Below, one piece after another: positions 9,075 to 57,755 of a stretch of DNA of 64,000 nt. The notes beneath the pieces were generated by a model. It ran no database searches, was not told the origin of the DNA, and was given only the letters and a program-made list of their open reading frames with translations. Both the position numbers and the translations under genes were made by a program. The stretch is taken from IMG/VR virus record IMGVR_UViG_2703718815_000003, one strand, 5' to 3'. Each line of letters starts with the position of its first letter. The stretch's first letter is position 1. Source of the stretch: a virus. Taxonomy: Duplodnaviria; Heunggongvirae; Uroviricota; Caudoviricetes.

Positions 9075-9668
9075 CTAAGCAGCCTTCTTTGATGGTCTTT
9101 TTTTCCTGATCACATTCGCAGGATCATACCCTCCCAGACTTTTCATGACGTCCAAAGGGATCTTGCTTATAGAGTGCCCAGCGTCCTGACAGAATCCTCG
9201 AAAAACAACGAGCATACTGCCACCTGGGTTGATGTTTACTTCTACCTGACCCAGATTGACGTCAGGCTCGACAAACGCTACGCGGCCACCAGACAGAATA
9301 ATCGTCTCATTCGCACACTCTGTTGCACGCTCATACCACTTTGTATCTAGGGATTGAGGAATTAGCATCACTGTTGTAACTCCGCGAGCCTGCTCACGTA
9401 TAGCCGCATCAATCCAGGGGGAGATTTTGGAGTAGGGTGGATTGAGGAAGGCAATTGTACCTGGCTGTCCCCATTCAGATTTCAAAGCATCACGCTCAAC
9501 GCCTATGAAATTAGGCAGCTTTGCATTGTCCTTGTTGCAGGCAACGTCAACATCAAATGTCACTCCAAGATAACGTTGAATGGCAGAAAACAGCCAGTCA
9601 GGTGTTCTCCAGAGGTCACGAAGAGAGTTGTCGCGCTTTCGCTGTTTGATTTTTTCGGCTGCAATCAT
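9075..9668 (-). CDS. DNA N6-adenine methyltransferase, small phage type
   Basis: 197-aa ORF with NPPY catalytic tetrapeptide (AFLNPPYSK) in a small single-domain protein. Confidence 0.65.
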   Translation of the reverse strand: MIAAEKIKQRKRDNSLRDLWRTPDWLFSAIQRYLGVTFDVDVACNKDNAKLPNFIGVERDALKSEWGQPGTIAFLNPPYSKISPWIDAAIREQARGVTTVMLIPQSLDTKWYERATECANETIILSGGRVAFVEPDVNLGQVEVNINPGGSMLVVFRGFCQDAGHSISKIPLDVMKSLGGYDPANVIRKKRPSKKAA

Positions 9669-22487: not shown

Positions 22488-22716
22488 ATAACACCTCTGA
22501 TACCGTGTGTTAGCTTTTGGCCTTCTTTCAATCTGAACTCCGTATGCGCCGGGAAGGATCTGCGCCTCAATACGCCTTTTCTTGTTAACCTTCCAAGATA
22601 AAACGCTACGGGATTTCCTTGTGGCGGGTAGGGCTTGTGAAACATCACCGTCTGGCCTCGTTCAAGTCTTTTCATCGTGATGGCAAAGTCTCGAAAGCTC
22701 CCATAACGACTTTGCT

Positions 22717-23802
22717 TCACACAGCCTCCGAACTCTCCGCTTCGGTGAGGATTTCCTGACACAAAATATCCAATTTGCTCAGATCAAATCCGCCGTCAGT
22801 ATCGTGGACAATCTTGCAATAAGCAGATACCGACTCTCCCAGGCTATCGATTTTGCTGGTTTCAGTTGTGCTGGCTGTCCCTTCCATCATTGATGACTTA
22901 CGGATGAAGTTGCACACGACACCTTTTGCACCCATTGTTTTGAGGATGTTCTGGTACTTAATGCCTTCTTCATCGTTCTCAATTACGGCGCGGAAACGCA
23001 CGTAGTTGCCGCGAATTTGGTCATCAGCAACATCATCTTCCAGGTTAATGAATTTAGGCGCACTGGTTTCGTAGTGACTGAAACTGCCGTCCGGGTTTAC
23101 GATCATGTAGCCAGCCAGAGATCCAACATCTCCCCAATTTTGATGAGTCAGTGCACCGACACTGATAACTCCAGGAATGACCTCTTTGTGGTTGTGGTAA
23201 TGCCCACTAAGCACGAGACGAAAGCCGATATCCTTTAACTCCTGCGCATCGATACCGACGTCAGGCATTGTTGGAATGGCTTTGTTAATGGATGTATGGA
23301 TAACAACGTCATGATTATCACCTTCTACGCTCTTACGTAATGCTTTCAGATCGCTGATAAGCTCCGCATGATTGTTACGCCAGCTAATCAGGTGGACAGT
23401 CACATCACCAATTTTTATTGAGTGTGGGCGCTTGCCACATACGATTACCACGCCGATAGAACTCAGCGATGCTGCTGCGTTGGCGCTATATACTGAATCG
23501 TTGGTTTCAAGATCGTGATTACCGGCCAGCATTACTACTGTCAGATCAAGCTCGTTGATAATCCACTTGTACGTTTCAGTTACGTAATGCAAAACAGAAG
23601 GGGACACAGTTCCTCGGACGTGAAATGTATCACCGGCAACCAACATGTACTTACAACCGGCCTTCTTCATGGCGATGGCTGCTTCTTTCGTTGCTTCCAA
23701 CTGTATTTCAAGTCTGGAGTTAAGCCCCTCAGCGTTCGTCGTGGAGAACGCATCCCATTTGTGGTAGTGGCAGTCAGAAATGACGCCGTATGGCAAAGTC
23801 AT
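22717..23802 (-). CDS. SbcD/Mre11-like nuclease
   Basis: calcineurin-like phosphoesterase motifs AGDTFH, GNHD, SGHYHNH. Confidence 0.8.
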   Translation of the reverse strand: MTLPYGVISDCHYHKWDAFSTTNAEGLNSRLEIQLEATKEAAIAMKKAGCKYMLVAGDTFHVRGTVSPSVLHYVTETYKWIINELDLTVVMLAGNHDLETNDSVYSANAAASLSSIGVVIVCGKRPHSIKIGDVTVHLISWRNNHAELISDLKALRKSVEGDNHDVVIHTSINKAIPTMPDVGIDAQELKDIGFRLVLSGHYHNHKEVIPGVISVGALTHQNWGDVGSLAGYMIVNPDGSFSHYETSAPKFINLEDDVADDQIRGNYVRFRAVIENDEEGIKYQNILKTMGAKGVVCNFIRKSSMMEGTASTTETSKIDSLGESVSAYCKIVHDTDGGFDLSKLDILCQEILTEAESSEAV

Positions 23803-24056
23803 GTATTTTTCCTTTGTGGTTATTTTGATACAAATTCTAAGAGCAATGAGGAGGTAAACAACTATGCATAACGGTATGTTAGGAATGAAACGAGCGCCTT
23901 AATATACAAAATTTATAAGTAAGTATATACCTATTTATCGTGGCGCAACTTTGCTTGTCTGTATGACTAAAAATAAGACAGGATCACTGTAGAACGCTAT
24001 GAGAGCTATTTTGAGGGGACGTAGATTCTATCTACGCCAATATACGATCTGGAGGG

Positions 24057-24701
24057 TTACAGCGCGTCAGTGGGCTTTTTACGCGCTGCGTTTATGCTTA
24101 TGACGCCAGCTTTTGGACGTGGGTCAACAAGGTTAAGCTCTTCTTCGCTGTGGTATTCGAGGTCGAACTCACGTTTTACATGTCTGATGTAGATTGCGGT
24201 GAGCAGGCTATCTTTGGTCAGAAAGTGTCCGTAGGATTTGCGGATCACTTCTTCTACTTTCTCGATTTTCTCACCACCCATACAGAGATGATTAAACCGG
24301 CTGTGTTTCCGCAACATTTCGTCTACTGGGCCTGAGTAAACCTTGTCTACTTTCCCAAAACGGATGATTTTCCCTGTGTCTGCGGATACGAGGCAAATCA
24401 GCTTGTCTGGTGATAAACGATCTCGCCACGTCACACCTGAACGGAGTGTGTTGAAGTAGGGAGCATCCAATCCGATGATCGGTTTACGAAATGCGAGTAA
24501 TGGAACGTACCTGATGCAACTGTTTAAATGAAAATTCACACCAGCCTTATCAAGTTTAATTCTGGTTTCGTAGATCGGGCACTTCGCCGCTATACCGCAG
24601 ATGTCACAAAGCAACTTCTGCTTATTCAGGTTGGAATTTGATTCGATAGTGTAGGAGCCGTCTTCAAGACGACGAACCCAGCGCGTGCGTTTTAGATCCA
24701 T
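24057..24701 (-). CDS. hypothetical protein
   Basis: 214-aa ORF. Confidence 0.4.
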   Translation of the reverse strand: MDLKRTRWVRRLEDGSYTIESNSNLNKQKLLCDICGIAAKCPIYETRIKLDKAGVNFHLNSCIRYVPLLAFRKPIIGLDAPYFNTLRSGVTWRDRLSPDKLICLVSADTGKIIRFGKVDKVYSGPVDEMLRKHSRFNHLCMGGEKIEKVEEVIRKSYGHFLTKDSLLTAIYIRHVKREFDLEYHSEEELNLVDPRPKAGVISINAARKKPTDAL

Positions 24702-24787
24702 ATGTCATTTTTCTGTGATTGTTAGCCGAGGCAACGATAACCCACCAGGTGCGCCGAAGGTAGTAAATGCCTGTTTTAATTATTCAC

Positions 24788-24861
24788 ATATCCACAGGAT
24801 AGATCCTAATAAAGAGATCCATAGATAGATCCTTGTATAGATCAAATAAGATCCCCGATCG
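24788..24861. promoter_or_regulatory. origin-like region: DnaA-box-like ATATCCACA followed by six GATC sites
   Basis: ATATCCACA at 24788..24796; GATC at 24802, 24817, 24829, 24841, 24851, 24858, five in AGATCC context at roughly helical spacing. Confidence 0.55.
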
Positions 24862-24900
24862 CTGTAAGCCGCGCCACGACTGGTCTGAAGCCATGTTCAT

Positions 24901-25002
24901 GTATGCTGTCAGCGGTAATTGATAGTCTGTCAGCGGTTCACCGTATGCTGCCAACTGTTTTTGGTATTCTGTCAGCGGCAAATCAAGTATGCTGTCAGCG
25001 GT
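24901..25002 (+). repeat. iteron array upstream of repA (5 direct repeats of GTATGCTGTCAGCGGT)
   Basis: copies at 24901, 24925, 24943, 24966, 24987, spaced 18-24 bp. Confidence 0.8.
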
Positions 25003-25022
25003 TGAATGACAAAGGTGTCCAC

Positions 25023-26117
25023 ATGTCCACAAAAAATAAAAAAGGTAAAAATAACAAAGAAGTAGAAGATAATCTCGACAACTTTGAAGAAGGTTCCCTT
25101 GAATTGTACACAGGGGAACTTGTCCCTAATAGCAACAATACAGTCCAACCAATTGCGTTGATGCGGCTGGGATTGTTCGTGCCCACGCTCAAGGGGACAA
25201 AATACAGCAAGCGTAACAAGCCAAATGAGATCGATGCTTCAAAGGAGCTTGTTCAGCTCGAAGTAGCCCGTTCTGAAGGCTATTCCGATATCAAGATAAC
25301 CGGTCCTCGTCTCGACATGGATCATGATTTCAAAACGTGGGTGGGCGTTGTGCGTTCGCTGGCAGAATACGGCGAACCTAACGGTCGTGTCGAGTTAAGC
25401 ATCACGAAATTTGCGAAGTTTTGTGGCTATCCATCGTCACAGATCCGCAAAACACTCCGCGACCGGCTTACAAACAGTCTTTTGAAGATCATGCGTACAA
25501 CTCTGTCTTTCCAGAGAACGTATGAAGAAAAGAACGTCGACGGCTCTAACAAGATCTCGCTTCTGATGGTGCACCTCATCAATAGCGTGGACTACAACGA
25601 GCAGAAAGATACGGTGGTGTTCTATGCAGAACCGAAGCTGGCCGAACTATATCGCTTTGACCATAAGGTTCTTTTGCAGTTAAAGGTTATCAATAAGCTA
25701 CCACGCAAAGAAACAGCACAGGCTCTGTACACCTTCATCGAAAGTCTTCCAACCAAGCCTGCGCCGGTATCGCTTGCTCGATTGCGTGCGCGACTCAATT
25801 TGAGTAGCAGGAATGTCAGCTCGCAGAATCAGACTATACGCAACGGCTTAAAAGCTCTCCAAGATTTGGGTTATCTCGAATACAGCGAGATTAAGCGAGG
25901 GCGGTCGATCTATATCCAGATTCACAGCCGCAATCCAAAACTCAAAGTCGCACCGCCAAAACCTGAAGACATCGAACCCAAAAAACTAGATGAGAAAGCT
26001 GGGGAAATTGATGCCAAACAGAACATTATCAACAAGATAACCGAACTTTCGCAGAATTTGACGCCTGAAAATATCAAGATGATTGAGATCCTTTCCAATA
26101 GTCTCAAACTGCTTTGA
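25023..26117 (+). CDS. repA: iteron-binding replication initiator RepA-like protein
   Basis: only long plus-strand ORF here; bracketed by direct-repeat arrays; start placed at ATG 25023 after last upstream iteron (ORF track starts at 24903 inside the iterons). Confidence 0.65.
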   Translation: MSTKNKKGKNNKEVEDNLDNFEEGSLELYTGELVPNSNNTVQPIALMRLGLFVPTLKGTKYSKRNKPNEIDASKELVQLEVARSEGYSDIKITGPRLDMDHDFKTWVGVVRSLAEYGEPNGRVELSITKFAKFCGYPSSQIRKTLRDRLTNSLLKIMRTTLSFQRTYEEKNVDGSNKISLLMVHLINSVDYNEQKDTVVFYAEPKLAELYRFDHKVLLQLKVINKLPRKETAQALYTFIESLPTKPAPVSLARLRARLNLSSRNVSSQNQTIRNGLKALQDLGYLEYSEIKRGRSIYIQIHSRNPKLKVAPPKPEDIEPKKLDEKAGEIDAKQNIINKITELSQNLTPENIKMIEILSNSLKLL

Positions 26118-26649
26118 TATGCTGTCAGCGGTGAAATGTATGCTATCAGCGGCTATTTTTCTGAAAAGTATGCTGTAAACGGTTAAATATATGCTACCAG
26201 CGGTATAGTGAGATGAACGTATGCTGTGGGCGGTAAATCATCTATCACCACTCAATGCTCTGTCATACCTCCCCAGTGGTTACTAACCTCGAAGAGTGCA
26301 TTCCATATAGGTTTGCGCTCACTAACATTCTATTGCTATTGCGCTGATTGCTTGTAGTGAAAGGCATTTATTGCCTGCTGCTCCCTGATAGAACGTATGC
26401 TGTCAGCGGTGTTTTATTGAGGAATTTTTGTTTGGATATGCTATCAGCGGTAATTAATGGTATATGTCAGACCTTCGTATGCTGCCAGCGGTAATTTTGT
26501 TCTGGTTATACCCATACCGGTACACATTATTCATGCAATGTCTTAAGTATGCTGTCAGCGGTAAAAAATCGAGTAAAGTATGCTGTGAGCGGTGAGATAG
26601 ACTCTCGATATGCTATCAGCGGTAGTTGATTGTGTATGCTGTCAGCGGT
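26118..26649 (+). repeat. iteron arrays downstream of repA (12 direct repeats in two clusters)
   Basis: copies at 26118, 26138, 26169, 26189, 26219 and 26395, 26436, 26477, 26547, 26578, 26608, 26634. Confidence 0.8.
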
Positions 26650-26696
26650 GACGACTATGAAATATGACTGCGGAACGTGCCGCAGTCAGTTTGCAT

Positions 26697-26909
26697 TTAG
26701 TGTATTTTCTTTAACAGACCCCAAAGTGTTCCGGCTTTTGTAGTCAGTTTTCCTGTTTCTGGATCGTACATACGCCATTCACGCCGCTGGTGGACGATAT
26801 ACCCATCTTCACGTTCCAGACGCTCAAGAATGCCAGGCTGCTTGAAACCCTTAGCACGCCAGTAGCCGCTTGTTTTCTCGATTTCCAGACCTGCCAGTGT
26901 TAATGCCAT
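26697..26909 (-). CDS. hypothetical protein
   Basis: 70-aa ORF. Confidence 0.3.
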   Translation of the reverse strand: MALTLAGLEIEKTSGYWRAKGFKQPGILERLEREDGYIVHQRREWRMYDPETGKLTTKAGTLWGLLKKIH

Positions 26910-27244
26910 TATCCAACCTCCTTGCAGTCATCGAAAAGGTAGCTTTGCTGAGAAGCGTGAACACCATAGAAGCCCTTGTATTTGTTGTATACGAAGTGGT
27001 CTTCTCCGACGCCGGTTAATTTGCCATTACGATTTGTGAGATATGGGGATGACAACACTCGATCGTCACGCACAACATAGAACTGGTCGCCGCTGTCTAC
27101 GACCATCGCTCCATATGGTGCTTTTATGACGTCGGTAAGAGCGCCATTCTTAACGTCGGCTACAGACATTTCACACTGATAAACAGTGGTGTCGGCCACA
27201 ACGATCGAAGAAAGGAACAACAGCGCGAATGGGATGGTCTTCAT
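26909..27244 (-). CDS. secreted protein (signal peptide)
   Basis: N-terminal MKTIPFALLFLSSIVVA signal-like sequence. Confidence 0.4.
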   Translation of the reverse strand: MKTIPFALLFLSSIVVADTTVYQCEMSVADVKNGALTDVIKAPYGAMVVDSGDQFYVVRDDRVLSSPYLTNRNGKLTGVGEDHFVYNKYKGFYGVHASQQSYLFDDCKEVG

Positions 27245-27459
27245 GCTGCCACCTCTTTGATTACATCAAATGCTGAATTAAATACGAGCACGATAGCCAA
27301 AGCGTTTATGACTACGTCGTGCACCGGGGAAAAGACTTTACGAATGACACCAGTGAAAATGCAGTCGATGACAAAAGCTATTGAAACGATGAGTAACAAG
27401 TATTCAATAAAAATCTTCATGATAGGTAGATACTAACTTATATAAATTTTACTGTAAAC

Positions 27460-27735
27460 TCACTCAAAAGTGCTGATGCTTAAAATACGCTCAAGATGTT
27501 CGGCATCTTCATCACTGATTTGTTGAGTCTCTTCTACGTACCAACAGTTGCCGTTATGCCAACAAACACCATCATCATCAACCATCACTGAATCAGCGTC
27601 ATGACCTGTATATTCAACGAGAATACGCTGGATCAGCGCGTCAGTTTCTTCGTCGTTAAGGCCATCGGCTTTGACCATAAAAAGCGGAAACACGTCATAG
27701 ACAGTGCTGGTAACGATTCGAACTAAAACTCTCAT
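27460..27735 (-). CDS. hypothetical protein
   Basis: 91-aa acidic ORF. Confidence 0.35.
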   Translation of the reverse strand: MRVLVRIVTSTVYDVFPLFMVKADGLNDEETDALIQRILVEYTGHDADSVMVDDDGVCWHNGNCWYVEETQQISDEDAEHLERILSISTFE

Positions 27736-27790
27736 GTGTTTTTCCTTTTGTGGTTAGTGTTTACTTATTTTGTTAGTTATGAATAGGCGA

Positions 27791-28216
27791 TCAATCTTCT
27801 TGTTTAGGGAAAAACTGTTCAATAACTCTGTCAACGGCTGTGTCTATATGGAGTAGATGCCACACAACCATATCTTTGCTTCCCATGCCTTGTGTGAATA
27901 TCACGTCATACTTACGCCATGCGCAGTGGAACCAATATGCTGAGTCATCAATTGGTAAATCCTCTCCCGCCTCTTTGAAGTATTTCAGCAGCATTGCCTG
28001 CTCTGCCGTTGGCGTTGGACCTATTTCCTGAGCGTACATACGGATGAATCGCTGCCAGTCTGTCTCCTCGGGGGTTGGATCTGGTGGGGTCATTTCTGCG
28101 ATAGCGTTTCGTAGTTGATGCGCCCAATCAGGTTCAGGAAAGCCTTTTGCTGCTTCATCATCAATAACATCCAGAGCCACGTTTGCGGCATCGTAGAGTT
28201 TCTTAATAGCTGTCAT
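27791..28216 (-). CDS. hypothetical protein
   Basis: 141-aa ORF; AAACAAATTATTT palindrome-like motif upstream. Confidence 0.4.
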   Translation of the reverse strand: MTAIKKLYDAANVALDVIDDEAAKGFPEPDWAHQLRNAIAEMTPPDPTPEETDWQRFIRMYAQEIGPTPTAEQAMLLKYFKEAGEDLPIDDSAYWFHCAWRKYDVIFTQGMGSKDMVVWHLLHIDTAVDRVIEQFFPKQED

Positions 28217-28265
28217 GTTTTCTTATCCTTTTAAACAAATTATTTTCTTAATAAGATAATTGCGA

Positions 28266-28291
28266 TAAAAAAGGCGTCCAACTGGACGCCT
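28266..28291 (-). terminator. intrinsic terminator
   Basis: aggcgtcc-aact-ggacgcct hairpin with A6 on plus strand (U6 on minus). Confidence 0.65.
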
Positions 28292-28307
28292 GAACTTTTT
28301 AGGGGAG

Positions 28308-29138
28308 TTATTTCACTGTAATGAAAGGAGTGTTAGCCCCTTGAGTCATGTACTGCGGTAACTGGCCATTCCATTTATTGATGGCTTCCAGTTCCATAAC
28401 GTTCGGGTTTTGACGCAGAGCTTCACCGCGCAGACGAATGGCGTCTGCTTCTGCTTGCGCACGAGCACGGATAGCATCAGCTTCACCATTAGCCTGTTCA
28501 CGTAGCATATTCGCCTCAGCTTTACGTTGTTCAACTTCCTGCTGACGTTGCAGAGTACGCTGGTTAGCCGTTACTTTGGCGTTAATAGATTCAATGACGG
28601 TTTTTGGGTAATCAGGCTTTCCAACCCATGACAGGCTCAGTACCTCAATACCAACCGGAGACATCTCTTTCTGAATATCTTTCAGTGCGTTGTCCAGCAA
28701 TTGTGCCTTACCACCGTCGATAAATGAGTCAGTGGTCATACGGCTGGCCAAACGGTTTAGAGAGTCGGCAATTTTCTGACGCAGATCTGATTCGGTGATA
28801 TCGTCTACGCCTTTGCGATAGGTCTGGAACACCGTCGTTACCTTGTCACGATTAACCAGATACGCAACGCCAATTTTGTGACCAATAGCAGTACCGTCAC
28901 TCATCTGGAATGTGAACGGCTCGTCGTAGGTCTTCATTTGTTTGAAGGTCGGGAATACGTAAAGTTCGGTGTTAAGACCTGTCCATTGGCGACCAACGCC
29001 AACTACTTCACCAATCCCTTTGTCTTCACCTAATTTGTTTACTTTGATGCCAACGTATCCAGGCTCCACGCGATCACAGCCAGTAAGACCCATTGTGCAA
29101 ACAGCGGCCACGATCACTGCCAGTAAACCTTTCTTCAT
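28308..29138 (-). CDS. SPFH/band-7 domain lipoprotein
   Basis: lipobox LTGC after signal peptide; SPFH-like core followed by Ala/Glu/Arg-rich coiled-coil. Confidence 0.6.
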   Translation of the reverse strand: MKKGLLAVIVAAVCTMGLTGCDRVEPGYVGIKVNKLGEDKGIGEVVGVGRQWTGLNTELYVFPTFKQMKTYDEPFTFQMSDGTAIGHKIGVAYLVNRDKVTTVFQTYRKGVDDITESDLRQKIADSLNRLASRMTTDSFIDGGKAQLLDNALKDIQKEMSPVGIEVLSLSWVGKPDYPKTVIESINAKVTANQRTLQRQQEVEQRKAEANMLREQANGEADAIRARAQAEADAIRLRGEALRQNPNVMELEAINKWNGQLPQYMTQGANTPFITVK

Positions 29139-29435: not shown

Positions 29436-31775
29436 TTAATCTTCTAGTTCTTCTGTTGGTGATGTCTTCTCTCGTCGGTCATCTATCGTCTGTAAAGCCG
29501 CAATGATTTCAGCTAGTGGCTTCTCCCGATACATCTCGACGATCTGTGATTTGGTGTATTTCTTGTCACCAATTTCAACTCGCCCGCTGGCGTTCTTTGG
29601 CAGGTATCCTTCTTCCAGCATGTACTCGACGAGCGACTCGATAACGTCGAGGCCACGAGTAGGATCGAAGTAGAATTTCCAGGTGCATTTGCCATACGGT
29701 GGTGCAACTTTGTTTTTGATGCACTCTGCGCCTACGTCCTGACCGATCTTCTCTTTCCCATCCTTCATCACCGATGCACCGAGACGGATGCGCACAGAAG
29801 CGTAAAACTTCGGTGAATCGCCGCCTGGCGACGTAGTAGGGTCGCCAAACATTACACCGATTTTTGTGCGAACCTGATTCAAGAAGATGATGCAGGCGTT
29901 GTATTTGCGTGCCCACAAAGCCAGAGTAGGGAAGTTCGCACTCGTCGCACGAGCCAGTGCCGTATTGTCGTTCATGTTCAGCTGATCTTTGTCTTTGGCA
30001 GTGCCTTCAGCCATCTTTTCGAACTTCTCGGCTTTGGAGTTCGGAACCATAGACGCAAGTGAGTCAGCCACGATACAGATAGGTGCTGATTCAGGAATAA
30101 GCTCTTCATCACGTACCAATTTAAGAATTGTGCCGATCAACTCTACAGAGTCTTCGAAGGTATCAGGCTGCTTGTATACCCACTGACCGTCATCCTCATC
30201 TGCGTTCAGACCATTGGCGACAGCCAGGCCAACGTCAAAACTGTTTTCATGATCGAGGAATACCGCCAGACCATCTTGTTTTTGAGCGGAGATCATCGCT
30301 GCTGTTGCAAGGAATGTGTTGTGGCTGATAATCCCGTTAGACCAGAAAGAGTGTGTTTCCGGCATCGCTACGTCGAACGTTGGTGCTTCACCTTCCTCAA
30401 TAGCCACGACTTCGTCGTAGAACAAGTTAGAGCCAATTACCGCTGCCAGTTGTGCAAACAGATGCTCGTTAAAACGATTCTTTCTGCCAATGAAGGAGAC
30501 ATAGATTTCTCGCAGTTTGTCTATTCCGACACGATCGCCGCGGCCAATAACGTGGTCTACCAGAGCGTAGTCTTCACGGGTGGTCTTGGTGAGCGACTCG
30601 TAGAGTGATTTCACTAAGCCGCTGATGTGCGGAACATAGCCTGAGTAAGTGCGGTCAAAACCAATGTCCCGTTTGGTTGCCACTGATAAACGTGCCGGAG
30701 ATTCGAAACCAATCGTTGACAGAAAAAGGTCGTAATTAGAGCCACTGAATGACAGCCGGTAATATGTATTTTCATAACCCGCGACGTGTTTTTCAGAGAT
30801 AGTTGACGTAATCCCCAGATTCAGGAGCATGAGGCGAATTTGCTGTAGCAGCAGCCCACTCGCGCTCACAACCTCAATGCAGCGACCATCATTGACGTGG
30901 CATTCCAGCTCAAAGTAGCCGCGAAGGAATGCAATTTGAGCCTCGCTATTGGCGCGACGCACACTCAACGGAACCTGCTTGCCAGCAGCTTTCTCATACT
31001 CCAGACCATATTCTTTAAAAAGCAGCGAACGCACCTCTTTGCTAAACAGCACATGGTCTTCCGAGCCGTTATGTTTTCTCGTAACTGGCATCTTGTCTGA
31101 TACCAGCGAAATGAGGCGGTAGTACTCATCCTTGATGAAAGGATCTGTGTTAGAAAAATTCACTGAATTTTCAGAGGCCACGTATCCGTCAGCAATTAAA
31201 TAGCCCATCAGTTTTGCGATATTGGCATCCAGGTGCTGATCGCCGAATTGATGTGTGCCAACCATTGAAGGAATCGTGTCGCCTACACTGATTTTTTCAG
31301 CATGTCGCCAGACGACATTACCTAAGTCGTCAACCACACGGATTGGGTGACGGAACGTAGCCTCGATATAACCGCCTGATGCCAGCTTAATACGCTTGAA
31401 TTTGCGACGGTTGTTCCATGTCAGGTGTGAGGTCTTCTCTATCACGCCATTTTCATTGATGAGTCCAACGTTATGCTCTACATCGCGAGTAGTGCATGTC
31501 GCTTTGTACCCTTCAATCTCAAACAACTCTTTCACTGTTACCATTCCACGCTCCGTCAGCAGCATGGTGTCTGCGGTAACACATTTCCCTGCACTTGGAG
31601 GACCGAATACTTCGACGATACGACCACATGGGAAGCCGCCATCGTAACGACCGGAAATAGCTTTGTTTAACGGTGGAAAGCCTGTATCAATCCAATGAGT
31701 TACTTTCTGAATTTCGTCGTTGCTACCGATTTTCTTTTTCAGAGCAAGTGCCAGTGCGGATTTTCCTTTTGCCAT
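29436..31775 (-). CDS. RecA-like recombinase interrupted by an intein
   Basis: extein: Walker A GPPSAGK|T split by insert, plus NQVRTKIGVMFGDPTTSPGGDSPKFYASVR RecA core; extein about 357 aa. Confidence 0.8.
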   Translation of the reverse strand: MAKGKSALALALKKKIGSNDEIQKVTHWIDTGFPPLNKAISGRYDGGFPCGRIVEVFGPPSAGKCVTADTMLLTERGMVTVKELFEIEGYKATCTTRDVEHNVGLINENGVIEKTSHLTWNNRRKFKRIKLASGGYIEATFRHPIRVVDDLGNVVWRHAEKISVGDTIPSMVGTHQFGDQHLDANIAKLMGYLIADGYVASENSVNFSNTDPFIKDEYYRLISLVSDKMPVTRKHNGSEDHVLFSKEVRSLLFKEYGLEYEKAAGKQVPLSVRRANSEAQIAFLRGYFELECHVNDGRCIEVVSASGLLLQQIRLMLLNLGITSTISEKHVAGYENTYYRLSFSGSNYDLFLSTIGFESPARLSVATKRDIGFDRTYSGYVPHISGLVKSLYESLTKTTREDYALVDHVIGRGDRVGIDKLREIYVSFIGRKNRFNEHLFAQLAAVIGSNLFYDEVVAIEEGEAPTFDVAMPETHSFWSNGIISHNTFLATAAMISAQKQDGLAVFLDHENSFDVGLAVANGLNADEDDGQWVYKQPDTFEDSVELIGTILKLVRDEELIPESAPICIVADSLASMVPNSKAEKFEKMAEGTAKDKDQLNMNDNTALARATSANFPTLALWARKYNACIIFLNQVRTKIGVMFGDPTTSPGGDSPKFYASVRIRLGASVMKDGKEKIGQDVGAECIKNKVAPPYGKCTWKFYFDPTRGLDVIESLVEYMLEEGYLPKNASGRVEIGDKKYTKSQIVEMYREKPLAEIIAALQTIDDRREKTSPTEELED
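30318..31583 (-). mobile_element. intein with LAGLIDADG homing-endonuclease domain inside the recombinase P-loop
   Basis: begins with Cys after GPPSAGK, block B TFRHP, LAGLIDADG-like LMGYLIADGY and LRGYFELE, ends ...IISHN followed by Thr (+1 nucleophile). Confidence 0.7.
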
Positions 31776-38450: not shown

Positions 38451-39686
38451 TTAACCAAATATTTTTTGAACAACTTCACGAGCCGCTTGCGCAGAAGCTG
38501 AAGGGAGTTTGTTAATGAAAGAACGCTCAATACCTGTCACAAAGTCGCCTCGCATCATTCCAATCTTGGCCGACAACAAAAGCTCACGAGGCCCAATTGG
38601 CTGGCTGATAAGGTGTTCTTCATATCCATCGCGAACGATACCGGCAAACTTAACCATCTTTTCAGCGTATTCATCCACGATGCCGGCATTTATCAACATG
38701 TTGATCTCTGCCTCTTTGCTCATGTATTTCACATTCGAAACGATGCCAAAACGTGAAAAGTTCGCGGCGTTCTGGATGTTTGTACCCTGGTACAAGCCGG
38801 TTTCATCACCAGAACCGTTTGTGTTGCCAGTGCCAATGAAAGCAAACCGTTCATGCGGAGTAATGCGACGCCATTCTGGAGTCGCCTCTTTGATGACCAA
38901 CGCTTCACCTTCCAGCACTGGCTGATACACGCCAAGAATCTGTGGAAACGCAAAGTCGTATTCATCCGCGAGGTAAACCCAGCCATGCTTCATTGCGAGC
39001 GCAAGCAAGCCAGGCTCGAAATACGTAGAGCCATCACGCGCCAGAATTTGTCCCGTAACATGAGCCTCTTCCATTGATGCTGTATGTTGGGCACGGATTA
39101 ACGGACGATTGAGCAAAGCACATAGTTGTGTAGGCAATGAAGATTTGCCTGTTCCTGCATGACCCCACAAATAGCCAGGTATGCCAAGTTCAAGCATCAT
39201 GAAAATGTCTTTGATCAGTTCGAAGTCGCCATATACGTATCCCTTCTTCACTTCTGGAACGAACTCTGGAAACGGCGTATTGACGTTGACGCTAACCATG
39301 AGCGGCGTCCCACGTTTTGTTCCGAGTTCTTTCACCGTTACATTTAGCAGTTCGTGAGCTGCGACCAGATCTGTCTTGTACTCAACTGTGCCTGTGTAGC
39401 CTGGGCTACTGGTCACGCCAGATGATTTGGCCATTTCGCTTTTTTGCTCGGCACGTTTAGCTTGAATTGCATCAAGTGCCTTTTTCGATAGCGTTGGCTC
39501 ATCTGGAAACTGTGTTGTGTACATTTTCAGTACGGTGTCAGGATCGGCATCTTTTACTGACTCAGGAATGCCCTCGCAATTACCATTGGCTACATGGGAC
39601 TTAAAATAGTGAAATGATTTTCCGCACCACTTGCAAACAAGGTAATCAGAAGGATTTTTTTCATTTTGCAGTGCAGTAGTAGTCAT
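38451..39686 (-). CDS. AAA+ ATPase, CobS/MoxR-like
   Basis: Walker A GHAGTGKSS, Walker B VYLADEYDF. Confidence 0.7.
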   Translation of the reverse strand: MTTTALQNEKNPSDYLVCKWCGKSFHYFKSHVANGNCEGIPESVKDADPDTVLKMYTTQFPDEPTLSKKALDAIQAKRAEQKSEMAKSSGVTSSPGYTGTVEYKTDLVAAHELLNVTVKELGTKRGTPLMVSVNVNTPFPEFVPEVKKGYVYGDFELIKDIFMMLELGIPGYLWGHAGTGKSSLPTQLCALLNRPLIRAQHTASMEEAHVTGQILARDGSTYFEPGLLALAMKHGWVYLADEYDFAFPQILGVYQPVLEGEALVIKEATPEWRRITPHERFAFIGTGNTNGSGDETGLYQGTNIQNAANFSRFGIVSNVKYMSKEAEINMLINAGIVDEYAEKMVKFAGIVRDGYEEHLISQPIGPRELLLSAKIGMMRGDFVTGIERSFINKLPSASAQAAREVVQKIFG

Positions 39687-39781
39687 GCGTTTTTCCTTTG
39701 TTTTCTAATGAGCGTTCAACTTCTTATATAAATATATCATTATCTATCGTAAGTGGTTACTTATCGTTAAGGCTGTTTTGT

Positions 39782-41890
39782 TCACTTTAAAATGATACGA
39801 GATAGTTCAGTAACTACAGATGAACCAAGACTATCAACGCTCGTTACCAGGGCATGATTTGAGTAAAATCTCTCCGGTGCATCAGTCATGATGCCAATTG
39901 CCATCAAATCAATGTCAGTCTGCGTTTCAATTTGCTTCGCAACTGAACGCAAATGAGCGTCAAAACCTCTCCCAACAGCCCACGGCGCGCCATCACTCAG
40001 AACAAGCATGATCTTCCTGTCCTCCAAGCGACCGGAAAATAACGATGCAAGGCTGGCTATGCTTTCACCATCCACGTTATTAAGAAGTGGGAATGTGTAG
40101 CCTACGCACCCCATACGTGAGCGAACTTCGCGAGAATTTGCTTTTTCATTCCAATTTTTGATGATAGGTAGCATTAAAGATTCAAAGCGAGAGAACTCAT
40201 ATTTGATAGCCTTAAGTTCTCCTGCTGCCATATGACTGCCAAATGTAGTGAAGCCGGTGATAATGTTGGGAACATTTATTCGATCAAGTGCATCGGCGAT
40301 GGTATATGCACTTGCAAGAGCTAGTTTTATCGTTTCGCCACTCATTGAACCCGATAAATCAATCACTTGTTGAACACAGGCGTTAACGGCTTTAGATTCT
40401 TCTTTTTTACGAAACACGCGATCATCATTCATTGTTAATCTGTAGATACTTGAACCATGAATGCGCCCCCGACGCTGGCCAGGTATAAACTGAACTCTGT
40501 TTCTGCTTGCTATTGCACGTTCCAGGTCTTTTGCCAGCGTCGACGAAACACCTGACGAAAGGTGCTTTTCAATATATTTGTCGAAGAGTTGGTTGCCTTC
40601 AGGAACGATGCGATAACGGCTGATTGGATATCCACCTAAATCAATATCGGAGAATGTTTTAATAAGCCGTTTGATATGGGCTTCTGCCTGATCAATCGAG
40701 CCGATGAAGTCGTATGAGCGATTGTATGGCCTGTATTCGCTTTTCGAGCTTTCTGTTAACTCGCTTTTAATCGTTTCGGATAGCGCATCTTCTGTCATGC
40801 CTCCGACTTCATCTTCCATGCTATCCAACTCCTCTAAAGCCTCTTCCAGACTCATTTTTGACGGAGTTGGAATGTCTGAAGAGCCGTCTTCTGTCGTTTT
40901 TCTTTTTTCGTGGTCAGCGGTTAATGATTCTGACGCCGCGTTATCAGAAGCATCAGAATCTGATACCGCTTTATCATTTTCTGTATCATCGAATATTGTT
41001 TCTGATGATTCAGGATTATCTGAATCATCACTGTCGTTATTATCATTTTTGTGCTTACTATGTGACTCTGATTTAATAGATTTGTGATTATCTAACGATG
41101 AGGGTGTCTCATGATCTTCGTTGTCTTCATTGTTTTCTCCAGAGGCATCCGTCTGGTCAGCGTCTGAAGGATCGGAAGTTTTTCCCGGAGCTGACTCCTT
41201 ACCTTTGCTTTCACTTTCAGTGTCTTTGAGGATCTTAGCTATGGTCGCAGCCACCTTTACACAATCCTCGGTGCAAGACATGTTACGCACGGCCACATCG
41301 ATACCATGTTCTTTTAATAATGAAATTGGTTTCTCAATGACAGGCCAATATTCATCCATGAAATCTACGAACGGTGCTTGGCCATCCCAGGCTCTTACAA
41401 CCGGACAGAGAAAGAAGTTTAGAACAAGCGCGCGCTGATCTTTGCCACAATAAGCAATAGCCTCTGAAGCCTTTGGTTTAAAGACTTTTTCGATTATAAG
41501 GCGCTGAGTTGCCATCAGATTACGTCCTGTTCCGTTAAAGACCTGACCCATTTTTCGCTCGATGAACACGTCTTCTAAGGCATTCCATAGCGACCAGGAA
41601 GGAACGCGTCCTTTTTCTCTCATTTTGTTGGACACACGAATATCGGTAAACAAAATGTGAGCAACCTCATGATCGAGAAATCCGCGCACAGCATTCATCA
41701 ATGCCGGTGTTGCGTTATCCGGGATTGATGGGATGTTTACGAGAATTGGCTCTCCATCATCGTTATAGCGTACATAAGCGTCGTCCCCTCGTTCTGCAAC
41801 AGGGATGTTTTTACCTGAAAGGAGAGCGACTACTCGTTTTACACTGTCACGGAAGTCCTGAACCTCTTTGATGGAACGTTTTTTAGACAT
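39782..41890 (-). CDS. von Willebrand factor A domain protein, CobT-like
   Basis: central acidic low-complexity region; C-terminal vWA with MIDAS motif DLSGSMSGE. Confidence 0.65.
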   Translation of the reverse strand: MSKKRSIKEVQDFRDSVKRVVALLSGKNIPVAERGDDAYVRYNDDGEPILVNIPSIPDNATPALMNAVRGFLDHEVAHILFTDIRVSNKMREKGRVPSWSLWNALEDVFIERKMGQVFNGTGRNLMATQRLIIEKVFKPKASEAIAYCGKDQRALVLNFFLCPVVRAWDGQAPFVDFMDEYWPVIEKPISLLKEHGIDVAVRNMSCTEDCVKVAATIAKILKDTESESKGKESAPGKTSDPSDADQTDASGENNEDNEDHETPSSLDNHKSIKSESHSKHKNDNNDSDDSDNPESSETIFDDTENDKAVSDSDASDNAASESLTADHEKRKTTEDGSSDIPTPSKMSLEEALEELDSMEDEVGGMTEDALSETIKSELTESSKSEYRPYNRSYDFIGSIDQAEAHIKRLIKTFSDIDLGGYPISRYRIVPEGNQLFDKYIEKHLSSGVSSTLAKDLERAIASRNRVQFIPGQRRGRIHGSSIYRLTMNDDRVFRKKEESKAVNACVQQVIDLSGSMSGETIKLALASAYTIADALDRINVPNIITGFTTFGSHMAAGELKAIKYEFSRFESLMLPIIKNWNEKANSREVRSRMGCVGYTFPLLNNVDGESIASLASLFSGRLEDRKIMLVLSDGAPWAVGRGFDAHLRSVAKQIETQTDIDLMAIGIMTDAPERFYSNHALVTSVDSLGSSVVTELSRIILK

Positions 41891-44668: not shown

Positions 44669-45790
44669 ATGGTATGGTCGATTAGGTATCATTCAGTTTC
44701 AAAATTAACCAAAGACACTGATAAAATGCCTGTTTTGTTAATCCTCATACTTGGGACAGTGATGATTATTTTCTGGGATACCGTCAAGGAAAACGTAGAG
44801 GTCATAGGTACACTTGCCACTTCACTTGCATTTTTCGCCACAGCATGGGCCGCTTACGAGGCAAGGCATAGTGCAAAGGCAGCAATGAGGGCCACTAGGC
44901 TGACGGCAGCTTCACTCCTTGAAATGAAAAAAGCCTCTTTTAAGGAATGGTACGGCATATTACTTGAACAGCATAATAGATTACTTGAGGATGTTAACAA
45001 GACCTTGCAGGATGATAGGGAACTTAATGCAAAACTGGGAACGAATCTCATCAAGGCTATTTATTACCATGTAACCAAAAACTCCGTTTACATTAAATAT
45101 ATTAACCACATAGTTTTAATTCTTGATTATTTAGATAAAGACTTCTATTCGCCGTCATCAGCCGATTATGAAAAGAGAGCTTACATAGAACAGCTGCGCA
45201 ACAGCATTAGTCCTAATGTAAGCCTGCTGATAGCTACATTCGGCCTTAATATTGACACTAATAAAACCTATGACGCAAAGAGGCTTTACAGCCTGCTAAG
45301 CAAGTATAACTTCTTCGAAGGCCAACTTTTTTTTGAAGAAGCAATATCGAAAGTTCATTATTTGGACTCTTATGCTGCTGTGATATTTGATAACGAATAC
45401 CGAAAAGATGTAGAGTTTTATGTTGAAGAAATGGTTCGAGGTCGTGAGACCCCTAAAATCGATTCAAGATATCGTCATTTAAGGGCTACGTTCGCAATTC
45501 TGTGGTCTTACAACAACCCCTGCCGACAACATTTGCTTCAAAGATTTAATGACCTACCTATGCATATGCGAAACAGCATTGAGCTGAGGATGGAAAATGC
45601 AGCCGATAAAGTAGCTGAGTTCAACTCTTTGTTACTTGGTTTTATAGGCTGGGAGCTTAGAATCGCAGGTAATAAAGTGAGGGTGATCAAGGATGAAAAA
45701 CATTTAAAGAGGCTAATAAAACTCAACGATAAGTATCCTATTCCCCCCCCGAGAGAAAGGTATTCTGTTAACCAATGGTTTCACCAATAG
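44669..45790 (+). CDS. membrane-anchored hypothetical protein (plus-strand moron; 3' end may be frameshifted at a C8 tract)
   Basis: 373-aa ORF, N-terminal hydrophobic helices; C8 run at 45743..45750; +1 frame stays open to 45957. Confidence 0.45.
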   Translation: MVWSIRYHSVSKLTKDTDKMPVLLILILGTVMIIFWDTVKENVEVIGTLATSLAFFATAWAAYEARHSAKAAMRATRLTAASLLEMKKASFKEWYGILLEQHNRLLEDVNKTLQDDRELNAKLGTNLIKAIYYHVTKNSVYIKYINHIVLILDYLDKDFYSPSSADYEKRAYIEQLRNSISPNVSLLIATFGLNIDTNKTYDAKRLYSLLSKYNFFEGQLFFEEAISKVHYLDSYAAVIFDNEYRKDVEFYVEEMVRGRETPKIDSRYRHLRATFAILWSYNNPCRQHLLQRFNDLPMHMRNSIELRMENAADKVAEFNSLLLGFIGWELRIAGNKVRVIKDEKHLKRLIKLNDKYPIPPPRERYSVNQWFHQ

Positions 45791-46138: not shown

Positions 46139-46225
46139 TGGCGGAGAGTAATGGAATCGAACCATCATCGCTTGCGCAATGGGACGGTTTTCAAGACCGC
46201 TTGAGCACCATGCTCCCTACTCTCC
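46139..46225 (-). tRNA. tRNA-Ser (anticodon UGA), CCA encoded
   Basis: manual fold: acceptor GGAGAGT/ACTCTCC, anticodon loop CTTGAAA, long variable arm, T-loop TTCGATT. Confidence 0.75.
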
Positions 46226-46438
46226 AGTTGTTGTGGTGCCGGGGGCTTCCCGGTGTCCTTTGGCTGGTTATCCACCGTGGACGGAGCCAATAGTCATCAC
46301 AAAGGATCAATATAACCATTTCCCCGCGTGCGCTTAGCCGCATTCACCACAACGAAAAGAGCACTGTATGACGTTTGCACGGACTTACGCTTAAAACAGG
46401 GCAGTCTCGGCGGTTCTCAATGCTCTTTCCTGTTGTGT

Positions 46439-46514
46439 TGGTGCCGGTTAACGGATTCGAACCGCCGACCATTCGCTTACAAGGCGACTGCTCTACCAAC
46501 TGAGCTAAACCGGC
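46439..46514 (-). tRNA. tRNA-Thr (anticodon UGU), CCA encoded
   Basis: manual fold: acceptor GCCGGTT/AACCGGC, D-arm GCTCAGTTGGTAGAGC, anticodon loop CTTGTAA, T-loop TTCGAAT. Confidence 0.75.
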
Positions 46515-46518
46515 AATT

Positions 46519-46605
46519 TGGTGGGGAGTGATGGAGTCGAACCACCCGAGTCGCAATGACAGTAGATTTACAGTCTACACCGCTACCTCTACGGACTAAC
46601 TCCCC
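46519..46605 (-). tRNA. tRNA-Tyr (anticodon GUA), CCA encoded
   Basis: manual fold: acceptor GGGGAGT/ACTCCCC, anticodon stem GTAGA/TCTAC with loop CTGTAAA, long variable arm. Confidence 0.75.
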
Positions 46606-46610
46606 TAAAT

Positions 46611-46685
46611 TGGCGATGGTGGGTGGATTCGAACCACCGACCAGTTGGTTAACAGCCAACTGCTCTACCGCTGAGCTACACCATC
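46611..46685 (-). tRNA. tRNA-Asn (anticodon GUU), CCA encoded
   Basis: manual fold: acceptor GATGGTG/CACCATC, anticodon stem GTTGG/CCAAC with loop CTGTTAA, T-loop TTCGAAT. Confidence 0.75.
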
Positions 46686-56132: not shown

Positions 56133-56492
56133 TCAACCTTTCTTCATCAACTCTCGTTTAATTTCATCGGTACGCATCGTAACGTCGGCAGCTGTGATCG
56201 CCTCGTTAAGCTTCACGATGTCCTCGATTTCCTGCGGTGACTTCTCTGCCAGATGGAAAATGGCTGCTCGAATCACGTCAGAACGAGTGAACTTCTCGAA
56301 GCGAGGGATGAACTTCATCATCTCCAGCAGTTCGAAGTATTCGTCCTCCAGTGACATTGTGCGGCTTTTAATTTTCTCTTTGCCACGAGTCGGGCGTCCC
56401 TGTGGTCTGACTGGTTGGCGCAAAGGAGTTGTGTTCTTAGCCGGTGCATCAGGCTCTTTGCGCTTTGCTAGGTCACCCATTTTCATGGACAT
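56133..56492 (-). CDS. ParG/ParB-like small partition protein (RHH-type, tentative)
   Basis: 119 aa; basic disordered N-terminus, C-terminal strand-helix-helix-like segment; start overlaps parA stop. Confidence 0.45.
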   Translation of the reverse strand: MSMKMGDLAKRKEPDAPAKNTTPLRQPVRPQGRPTRGKEKIKSRTMSLEDEYFELLEMMKFIPRFEKFTRSDVIRAAIFHLAEKSPQEIEDIVKLNEAITAADVTMRTDEIKRELMKKG

Positions 56493-57748: not shown

Positions 57749-57755
57749 TTTACTC

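Follow-up and report, generated by a model that had tools for sequence, protein, structure and literature searches.

Anatomy and relatives of a P1-type iteron replicon in an SSU5-like phage-plasmid of Escherichia coli

Results

Organization of the replicon locus

The window analyzed here is the whole 64,000-nucleotide stretch of the viral record IMGVR_UViG_2703718815_000003. Within a segment of about 2 kb, a single gene, repA, is bracketed by direct repeats (iterons) and preceded by sites for host factors, with the following features.

24780..24796, + strand: two abutting DnaA boxes, TTATTCACA at 24780-24788 (strict TTWTNCACA) and ATATCCACA at 24788-24796 (8/9 to TTATCCACA)
24798..24862, no strand: AT-rich GATC (Dam) region of (A/T)AGATCC-like repeats with six GATC sites, presumed to serve unwinding and SeqA sequestration
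24863..24900, no strand: GC-rich spacer from the GATC repeats to the iterons, with GCCGCGCCACGACTGG at 24868-24883
24890..26679, + strand: specificity cassette (origin iterons, repA and control iterons), a block replaced relative to pLF82/Cyrano
24901..25003, + strand: five origin iterons (incC-like), cores at 24902, 24923, 24944, 24965 and 24988, spacing 21, 21, 21 and 23 bp
24961..24990, + strand: candidate repA promoter, TTGGTA-18 nt-AAGTAT, within iterons 4 and 5 (weak; 7/12 to consensus in a looser scan)
25015..25023, + strand: possible right-end DnaA box, GTGTCCACA (7/9, weak), overlapping the ribosome-binding site and start codon
25023..26117, + strand: repA, a predicted 364-aa iteron-binding initiator of the P1 RepA/RepFIB (Rep3) family (Pfam, PHROG, tblastn)
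26117..26235, + strand: downstream iteron cluster 1, putative incA-like control array, five copies at 26118, 26139, 26169, 26190 and 26220, spacing 21, 30, 21 and 30
26236..26394, no strand: iteron-free spacer of 159 bp between the downstream clusters (weight-matrix scan)
26395..26650, + strand: downstream iteron cluster 2, putative incA-like control array, seven copies at 26396, 26437, 26478, 26548, 26579, 26609 and 26635, spacing 41, 41, 70, 31, 30 and 26
26665..26688, no strand: GC-rich hairpin (stem of 9 bp) resembling a terminator on either strand and separating the control array from a converging gene (26697-26909, - strand)

The repeats reported in the initial annotation, five upstream of the gene and twelve downstream in two clusters, were located as 17 copies of TATGCTGTCAGCGGT, all on the + strand, and are far beyond chance. 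A search of the 64-kb window allowing up to three mismatches to TATGCTGTCAGCGGT returned 19 matches, 17 of which are the + strand copies at the replicon, compared with 1.35 expected from shuffled sequences (shuffle maximum 6). In a weight-matrix scan of both strands of the window, scores ranged from 18.8 to 32.2 bits for the 17 iterons and reached 11.6 at most elsewhere, and no reverse-strand iteron copies were found. Two further sites in cluster 2, at ~26458 and ~26508 within its 41-bp and 70-bp gaps, resemble degenerate iterons by eye but fall below the weight-matrix threshold, and an inverted iteron-like match within repA (25357-25371, 11/15) is at chance level. Cluster 1 begins at the repA stop codon, and none of the 17 iterons lies within the coding sequence (25023-26117), the position that iterons occupy in a lambda O-type origin. 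The 159-bp spacer between the clusters contains no iteron above threshold, no Rfam family and just short mechanical ORFs.

The DnaA-box-like site previously noticed at 24788-24796 (ATATCCACA) is present and is abutted by a strict box (TTATTCACA) that had been missed; only five strict TTWTNCACA boxes exist on both strands of the window. The six GATC sites described 5' of the iterons (starting at 24802, 24816, 24828, 24840, 24850 and 24857, i.e., six in 60 bp) form a cluster that is unique in the window, since none of the other 70-bp stretches contains four or more of the 267 GATC sites found overall. The GC content of positions 24750-24849 is 0.34. A stricter standard promoter scan of the origin found no promoter on the + strand. 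No Rfam family reached its gathering score between 24 and 27 kb, and tRNAs were the only matches in the whole window; a regulatory RNA of the kind that controls antisense-RNA-controlled replicons (IncFII/ColE1) was thus not found by Rfam.

The repA gene is the sole + strand gene between ~0 and ~42.4 kb of the window according to the gene table of a near-identical plasmid, and over that range it is indeed the only long plus-strand gene, as originally described. Its ORF is intact. A profile search of the 25023..26117 protein against initiator families, the check proposed for it at the outset, placed Pfam Rep3_N (WH1) above its gathering score (37.5 bits, cutoff 22.4; 3.9e-9), while Rep3_C (WH2) fell below its own (13 bits, cutoff 21.1). 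The protein matches PHROG 775 (4.6e-133), and tblastn aligned residues 32-309 with P1/P7 repA at 43.5% identity (E 2e-64). By the same method, RepA is 48% identical to the RepA of SSU5/Cyrano and 85-87% identical to that of Klebsiella phage-plasmids. A full-length alignment revealed the invariant blocks NNTVQP-ALMRLG-FVP, GPRLDMD-DFKTW and AQA-YTFIESLP. No match was obtained from an NCBIfam search with RepA, and nothing relevant from a sequence search of solved structures (PDB) using either the single RepA or a 4-sequence profile; a single-sequence AlphaFold2 model of RepA was unusable (pLDDT 38). In plasmid records, the protein is annotated as 'RepB family plasmid replication initiator', and many of these records start at the repA ATG.

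Comparison with the P1 replicon

The resemblance of this locus to the plasmid replicon of phage P1 (oriR/incC-repA-incA; IncY, with P7 and RepFIB relatives) is, as judged from sequence comparison, one of homology. The layout attributed to the locus at first sight, that of the P1 R-replicon (oriR, repA, incA), was borne out by identical part order, a homologous RepA and an aligned half of the origin. Both replicons consist of tandem DnaA boxes, a GATC-rich AT region, a GC spacer, five iterons, repA and an iteron array. The origin iterons lie ~21 bp, or roughly two turns of the helix, apart in both (21, 21, 21, 22 in P1 versus 21, 21, 21, 23 here), and the incA array of P1 also begins at the repA stop codon. 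The DnaA-box/GATC/spacer half aligns base-for-base with P1 oriR: the boxes at 24780-24796 match its annotated DnaA site (TTATCCACATTATCCACT), the six-GATC region matches its five annotated Dam sites, and the GC-rich spacer is almost base-for-base kept both in P1 oriR and in Klebsiella pJN2-26. The candidate repA promoter sits at the same site within the iterons as the annotated P1 PrepA (TTGCTA-18-TAGGAT). At the position of the possible right-end DnaA box, the pJN2-26 homologue has GTATCCACA (8/9), and P1 has CTATCCACA 3' of its iterons.

The two replicons differ in several respects. The iteron is GTATGCTGTCAGCGGT here and GATGTGTGCTGGAGGGAAA in P1, and there are six GATC sites here versus five in P1 oriR. 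The control array consists here of 12 copies, all direct, in two clusters 176 bp apart, whereas the nine copies of the P1 incA array are of mixed orientation (three direct, six inverted). Because the downstream array differs from P1 incA in this way (all direct, two clusters), the incA-like control role proposed for it is an extrapolation. RepA is 364 aa long compared with 286 aa in P1; it is extended at the N terminus by a lysine-rich stretch and at the C terminus by ~55 aa, and contains an 8-aa insertion. The par genes are adjacent to the replicon in P1 but 30 kb from it here.

Related phage-plasmids and a swapped specificity cassette

The window represents a pECOH89/p09EL50-type SSU5-like phage-plasmid of E. 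coli; SSU5-like phage-plasmids are a known group (PMC3999498, PMC7969092). A total of 122 records, deposited as circular plasmids of ~107-115 kb, contain the 2-kb replicon segment at 95-100% identity, and the replicon is present at 97.5% identity or higher in more than 120 sequenced plasmids of Escherichia and Shigella. Across five Escherichia/Shigella species, ~120 plasmids have the whole 2-kb unit without indels, and the segment is present in the isolated phages PhiR41_1 and CMS-2020a as well. The segment is 98.9% identical to p09EL50 over the whole 2 kb, 98.9% identical to MW590712 and CP124485, and 100% identical to NZ_CP027358, whose coordinates serve as a guide only because the window is not collinear with it base-for-base. 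The replicon of p09EL50 (pECOH89-type) is the same, with the same 5 + 12 iterons and no difference of substance, and pECOH89 and p09EL50 have been reported to share an identical RepA (PMC3999498). MW590712 and CP124485 have been named as relatives, and the plasmid type is typed by PlasmidFinder as IncFIB(H89-PhagePlasmid) (PMC12838234). In the records inspected, MOB-suite identified rep_cluster_488 as the only replicon, and this is equally the only typed replicon in E. albertii plasmids of 62-64 kb, in which dnaE is truncated and the gene table lists no phage structural genes. The replicon is an already catalogued type (rep_cluster_488, IncFIB(H89-PhagePlasmid)). Some members of the family carry blaCTX-M-15.

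The accessible portions of the published notes on the pECOH89/p09EL50 type name the RepA gene alone and leave the origin anatomy undescribed. A literature search returned no published replication or incompatibility experiment on the present repA allele and, for PhiR41_1, no relevant paper.

The Klebsiella pKPHS1-type elements (IncpKPHS1; e.g., pJN2-26) are close relatives, with a RepA 85-87% identical, the same iteron consensus and five origin iterons spaced 21, 21, 21 and 23; the downstream copies number eight, in blocks of four and four, versus twelve here. Iterons 3' of repA have been reported in the pKPHS1 group, although only four copies were given and RepA was said to be without known domain (PMC6735626). 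The number and spacing of the origin iterons are constant among the relatives compared (p09EL50, PhiR41_1 and pJN2-26), while the control array varies between 12, 9 and 8 copies; PhiR41_1 has lost the last three copies of cluster 2 through an 87-bp iteron-to-iteron deletion.

The SSU5/pLF82 replicon (Cyrano; IncFIB(pLF82-PhagePlasmid)) occupies the same genomic position between flanks that are 96-99% identical and that include the half of the origin with the DnaA boxes and GATC sites. Its RepA belongs to the same family (48% identical) and has the same C-terminal extension. Its iterons (~AACCACTGTAGAGAG) differ, and those downstream occur in either orientation; 5' of its repA lie two origin-like copies in tandem. 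It belongs to a different typing group. In a blastn comparison of the window with Cyrano, identity was 95.9% up to 24889 and 98.8% from 26680, with no alignment between; near-identity resumes within the hairpin (26665..26688). The iteron changes along with RepA, being the same in the 86%-identical Klebsiella replicons and different in SSU5/Cyrano (48%) and P1 (43.5%). A speculative reading is that the iteron-repA-iteron block (24890-26679) might be an exchangeable incompatibility cartridge. Recombination would then take place in the conserved host-factor half of the origin on one side and in the terminator hairpin on the other, and copy number would be tuned by the length of the control array (12, 9 or 8 copies).

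Discussion

A probable maintenance replicon among phage replication genes

The sequence anatomy, the homology to P1 and the occurrence in plasmids as well as phages are matters of direct observation. The locus is very probably the (theta-type) maintenance replicon of the plasmid prophage of a pECOH89/p09EL50-type SSU5-like phage-plasmid, homologous to P1 oriR-repA-incA; we infer that it would replicate and exert incompatibility, and that it would depend on DnaA and Dam. A replicon of the P1 RepA/RepFIB type would be expected to require SeqA and DnaK/DnaJ/GrpE as well. The low-copy plasmid maintenance first suggested for the element is likewise favored by the homology of its initiator to P1 RepA and by the 122 circular-plasmid records containing the segment. 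Other genes in the window bear on this reading.

9075-9668: Dam-family methylase, the element's own
56492-57160, - strand: ParA-type ATPase
57440-58277, + strand: TacA-like antitoxin and GNAT toxin pair (TacAT-type)

The initial annotation had listed parA/parG and a toxin-antitoxin pair as further support; the ParA-type ATPase and the TacA-like/GNAT pair stand, but the 119-aa ORF called parG has no Pfam match. A 411-aa 'AAA ATPase' (38451-39686), considered as another possible ParA, is CobS/MoxR-like and lies beside a CobT homologue.

By homology with P1, RepA monomers would bind the five phased iterons (24901-25003) and, together with host DnaA bound at 24780-24796 and possibly at 25015-25023, would open the AT-rich GATC region (24798-24862), after which the host helicase would be loaded. 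As a helicase, a primase and DnaE are encoded on the element itself, it may not rely on host DnaB/DnaC. Through the six GATC sites, firing would require Dam methylation, and once initiation has occurred the hemimethylated origin could be sequestered by SeqA; the Dam-family methylase of the element could contribute to this control. With its candidate promoter inside iterons 4 and 5, repA may be autorepressed. The twelve iterons downstream of the gene (26117-26650) may constitute a copy-control and incompatibility locus, acting through RepA titration and through RepA-mediated pairing ('handcuffing') with the origin iterons. The resulting low-copy plasmid would presumably be stabilized by the ParA-type partition function and the TacAT-type toxin-antitoxin pair.

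The replicon is surrounded by phage genes for replication and recombination (SbcCD-like, RecA, 5'-3' exonuclease, DnaE, ligase, primase and helicase), and this setting raises the question of whether lytic replication also, or instead, starts at the repA origin, with RepA recruiting the element's DnaB-like helicase, primase and Pol III alpha. In addition to the location of the locus, the annotation examined contains no lytic replicon of the P1 repL type, and the RepA of the SSU5 group has a ~55-aa C-terminal extension that P1 RepA lacks. However, P1 RepA, the closest characterised homologue, is annotated for plasmid maintenance only, a multi-iteron control array limits copies when lytic amplification would call for the reverse, and the replicon is retained in E. 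albertii plasmids whose dnaE is truncated and whose gene table is devoid of structural genes. A lytic role is accordingly regarded as improbable. An equally doubtful extension of the same idea is that the C-terminal extension and basic N-terminal tail of SSU5-group RepA dock the element's DnaB-like helicase and primase, so that one origin would serve both lifestyles; if true, replication would be of the host-controlled, iteron-limited theta type in the prophage and driven by the phage replisome after induction.

Repeat arrays beside replication genes are centromeres in some plasmids, and the twelve downstream repeats might accordingly be a partition centromere (sites for a Par adaptor) or recombination/attachment sites rather than elements of replication control, particularly as the record of the related phage pJN2-26 labels two repeats attL and attR. 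Those labels, however, fall on ordinary iteron copies (L006 1335 and 2605, pJN2-26), the ParA gene is 30 kb away, and the array occupying the homologous position in P1, incA, carries a RepA-binding annotation. The downstream copies, moreover, share their consensus with the origin iterons and therefore should bind the same protein, RepA, all of which leaves this alternative very unlikely. Least probable of all is that the locus is the remnant of a replicon that has decayed and lost its function, with maintenance of the plasmid left to another replicon elsewhere on the element: the window covers 64 kb of ~110 kb, leaving room for a second replicon outside it, but the repA ORF is undamaged, the 2-kb unit is conserved at 97.5% identity or more and without indels in ~120 plasmids of five species, and rep_cluster_488 is the sole MOB-suite replicon of the inspected records.

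Implications for the phage-plasmid family

The maintenance replicon described here is a textbook P1-type iteron replicon that already figures in plasmid-typing schemes, and it involves no new mechanism; it is real but ordinary, because it is a true relative of the P1 replicon that plasmid-typing databases already contain. The additions made here are modest: the anatomy is resolved precisely, the swapped specificity cassette is given exact borders, and several annotations are corrected. They are of use for annotation and typing, and the base-level map of the origin offers clean targets for curing, incompatibility and copy-number work. For the biology of the group, the replicon would set the persistence, the copy number and the coexistence with other plasmids of a widespread family of E. 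coli/Shigella phage-plasmids.

Organization of the replicon

Both a repeat finder and a reading of 24500-27000 identify a family of direct repeats flanking one long plus-strand ORF, an arrangement that the initial annotation had likened to the R-replicon of phage P1 (oriR, repA, incA). The sequence TATGCTGTCAGCGGT, allowing up to 3 mismatches, has 19 matches in the 64-kb window compared with a mean of 1.35 (maximum 6) in shuffled sequences, and 17 of these 19 lie on the plus strand at the reported place. When scanned with a weight matrix built from the 17 copies themselves, these copies score 18.8-32.2 bits and the rest of the window, on either strand, at most 11.6 bits; because of this gap, the iteron count can be set at exactly 17, all in one orientation. 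The replicon comprises:

24780-24788: DnaA box with the strict consensus, TTATTCACA
24788-24796: DnaA-box-like site, ATATCCACA
24802, 24816, 24828, 24840, 24850 and 24857: starts of six GATC sites
24902-25002: five iterons (spacing 21, 21, 21 and 23 bp)
25023-26117, plus strand: repA, 364 aa, Pfam Rep3_N above the gathering score
26118-26649: twelve iterons (groups of five and seven with a 176-bp step between them)

Every element described from the sequence is thus present around repA (five upstream iterons at ~21 bp, twelve downstream in two clusters, six GATC sites, and the DnaA-box-like site), together with the strict-consensus DnaA box, which abuts the reported one and had been overlooked. 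The GATC stretch is the local GC minimum (0.34) and the sole spot in the window, among 267 GATC in total, with at least 4 sites within 70 bp. A possible right-hand DnaA box lies across the repA start codon (GTGTCCACA here, GTATCCACA in Klebsiella phage pJN2-26). The module at 24769-24889 (DnaA box, GATC, GC spacer) on its own matches hundreds of other ~100-kb enterobacterial plasmids at 77-83% identity; these differ in their iterons and RepA, and include P1-like and Yersinia pMT1-type plasmids.

RepA and the comparison with P1

A profile search of the 25023-26117 product bore out its proposed membership of an initiator family: Rep3_N, the WH1 domain of iteron-binding initiators, is matched at 37.5 bits (Pfam gathering score 22.4), Rep3_C below the Pfam threshold, and PHROG 775 at 4.6e-133. 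By tblastn, the protein is 43.5% identical to P1 and P7 RepA (residues 32-309, E 2e-64), 48% to RepA of phages SSU5 and Cyrano (pLF82 type), and 85-87% to Klebsiella phage-plasmid RepA. A four-way alignment spans all of P1 RepA, relative to which the window and SSU5-group proteins have extra N-terminal residues, an 8-residue insertion, and a C-terminal extension of ~55 residues. No relative was found by sequence search of the solved structures with RepA. Judged by these alignments, the 364-aa product is a homologue of P1 RepA.

RefSeq/PGAP records place the initiator start at an ATG at 24903 (404 aa), giving an ORF that crosses all five origin iterons, each of which contains an ATG. Three observations favor the start at 25023: how RepA of P1 and SSU5 aligns with the product, a ribosome-binding site (AAAGGTG), and the large number of plasmid records set to start precisely at this ATG.

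The curated P1 record has the same kind of order (DnaA site, five Dam sites, five RepA-binding iterons (incC), repA, nine RepA-binding iterons (incA)), with the repA promoter inside the incC iterons and incA starting at the repA stop codon. Side by side, the non-iteron halves of the two origins are near-identical (TTATCCACATTATCCACTGGATAGATCC...GATCGTTGCAGGCCGCGCCACGTCTGG in P1, TTATTCACATATCCACAGGATAGATCC...GATCGCTGTAAGCCGCGCCACGACTGG in the window), whereas the iterons differ (GATGTGTGCTGGAGGGAAA in P1, GTATGCTGTCAGCGGT in the window). The P1 promoter (TTGCTA-18-TAGGAT) occupies the same position, in iterons 4-5, as a candidate repA promoter in the window (TTGGTA-18-AAGTAT, 24961-24990), which is weak and absent from the standard scan output. 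At the level of sequence, the window origin is homologous to P1 oriR, beyond mere similarity.

Distribution of the replicon

Over the 2-kb segment, identity is 100% to E. coli plasmid NZ_CP027358 (110 kb), 98.9% to p09EL50, and 98.6-98.8% to phages PhiR41_1 and CMS-2020a; at ≥95% identity, 122 Escherichia and Shigella plasmid records contain it, and ~120 plasmids carry the whole downstream array at ≥97.5% identity without indels. Plasmid records with the segment call the gene 'RepB family plasmid replication initiator' and the type rep_cluster_488. pECOH89 and p09EL50 share one and the same RepA sequence, which is 48% identical to the pLF82 protein, and plasmids of this kind have been grouped with pHCM2 and phage SSU5 (PMC3999498). 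Such plasmids are typed as IncFIB(H89-PhagePlasmid) (PMC12838234), the comparison plasmids of that study (MW590712 and CP124485) being 98.9% matches here, and SSU5 replication genes have been entered in typing tools as IncFIB (10.1101/2025.09.12.675607). SSU5-like elements form an established phage-plasmid supergroup (PMC7969092), and iterons 3' of repA have been reported in the Klebsiella sister group (PMC6735626). Given these typing groups and published relatives, the replicon type is already known and catalogued. A base-level description of its origin was not found in the accessible literature, and what the analysis still adds is a precise map, the borders of the cassette, and corrected annotations.

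At least seven E. albertii plasmids of 62-64 kb (e.g., NZ_CP034165, 63.8 kb) have the replicon at 99% identity, and it is their only typed replicon. The gene table, which is incomplete, lists insertion sequences, chromosomal-type genes (hdeAB, metG, apbC), and a shortened dnaE with an HNH endonuclease gene after it; phage structural genes are absent from the table. These plasmids resemble phage-plasmids that have degraded and now persist as ordinary plasmids; given the incomplete gene table, they only suggest that the unit can sustain a plasmid on its own.

Iteron variation and cassette exchange

In the pJN2-26 record (MZ779062; RepA 85-87% identical), the iteron consensus is unchanged, as are the number (five) and spacing (21, 21, 21 and 23 bp) of the origin copies, but only eight iterons lie downstream; p09EL50 has 5 + 12, as in the window, and the isolated phage PhiR41_1 has 5 + 9. 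SSU5 and Cyrano, with RepA 48% identical, have a different iteron (~AACCACTGTAGAGAG), so that iteron sequence appears to go with its initiator across these replicons. In PhiR41_1, an 87-bp deletion running from one perfect iteron copy to another (~4061-4146 in the phage, corresponding to 26548-26650 in the window) removed the final three control iterons, a loss that could raise copy number by analogy with P1 incA deletions. These counts indicate a fixed origin set and a more variable downstream set, a pattern consistent with an essential origin accompanied by a regulatory array.

In a blastn comparison of 22500-29000 with Cyrano, identity is 95.9% up to 24889 and 98.8% from 26680, with no alignment between. 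Alignment breaks off on the left between the GC spacer and iteron 1 and resumes on the right within a terminator-like hairpin (26665-26688); the exchanged block is therefore exactly the origin iterons, repA, and the control iterons, and it carries initiator specificity and, presumably, incompatibility. Both types share the half of the origin that contains the DnaA boxes and GATC sites. In P1-like elements, replicases have been described as exchanged in a comparable way at one position (PMC7969092). On the 5' side of repA, replicons of the SSU5/pLF82 type carry an origin-like unit (DnaA box, GATC-type repeats, five iterons) twice in tandem, compared with once in the window, and in the repA-proximal copy most GATC have decayed to AGAACC or AGACCC:

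Cyrano, 2269-2500 and 2655-2900: tandem origin-like copies
SSU5, 780-1000 and 1155-1400: tandem origin-like copies

Genomic context

The genes neighboring repA all lie on the opposite strand and belong to phage replication and recombination (SbcCD-like, intein-containing RecA, 5'-3' exonuclease, DnaE, ligase, primase, DnaB-like helicase). Features elsewhere in the window include:

9075-9668, minus: Dam-family N6-adenine methyltransferase (PF05869, 2.5e-38)
29436-31775, minus: RecA homologue with intein (Pfam RecA 3.4e-36; Intein_splicing 2e-11)
38451-41890, minus: adjacent CobS/MoxR-like AAA ATPase (411 aa) and CobT-like VWA protein (702 aa)
44669-45790, plus: 373-aa ORF between the glutaredoxin gene and the tRNA cluster
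46139-46685, minus: four tRNA genes (Ser-TGA, Thr-TGT, Tyr-GTA, Asn-GTT)
56133-56492, minus: 119-aa ORF after the ParA-type ATPase gene
56492-57160, minus: ParA-type ATPase (maintenance cluster 56133-58277)
57440-57748, plus: TacA-like antitoxin, divergent from and adjoining the ParA genes
57756-58277, plus: GNAT toxin, paired with the TacA-like antitoxin

The predicted parA and toxin-antitoxin pair are both found here (56492-57160 and 57440-58277). Pfam searches gave no match for the 119-aa ORF, initially called parG, or for the 373-aa ORF, which occupies a variable spot where the near-identical plasmid NZ_CP027358 has a Gp49-family gene. The RecA intein contains a LAGLIDADG homing endonuclease (LAGLIDADG_3 2.4e-17), and the CobS/MoxR-like ATPase is labelled just 'AAA family ATPase' in the record. 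For pECOH89, only the Thr and Asn tRNAs were reported (PMC3999498).

Proposed function

A role of repA and its origin in lytic replication, for which the C-terminal extension of RepA leaves room, is possible but unlikely; a design that limits copy number and the example of P1 both speak against it as the main role. The downstream repeats are most unlikely to be centromere or attachment sites, because they share the consensus of the origin iterons, and the strong conservation of the replicon rejects a decayed remnant. In the pJN2-26 record, a pair of 20-bp sequences on the two sides of repA is annotated as attR (1333-1352) and attL (2603-2622); these coincide with ordinary iterons at 1335 and 2605, and the labels are probably automatic mis-annotation.

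The homology of RepA and oriR to those of P1 supports the reading as a P1-like R-replicon. P1 oriR, incA handcuffing, and Dam/SeqA control are reportedly established through work of the Chattoraj, Abeles/Austin, and Wickner laboratories. Extrapolating from the P1 record annotation and this P1 work, RepA monomers on the five phased iterons and host DnaA on the flanking boxes would open the methylated AT-rich GATC region, and the element's own Dam-family methyltransferase may bear on methylation of its six GATC sites. RepA would repress its own promoter inside the iterons, and the twelve downstream iterons would limit copy number through titration and origin pairing and would set incompatibility, with inheritance probably stabilized by ParA, its partner protein, and the toxin-antitoxin pair.
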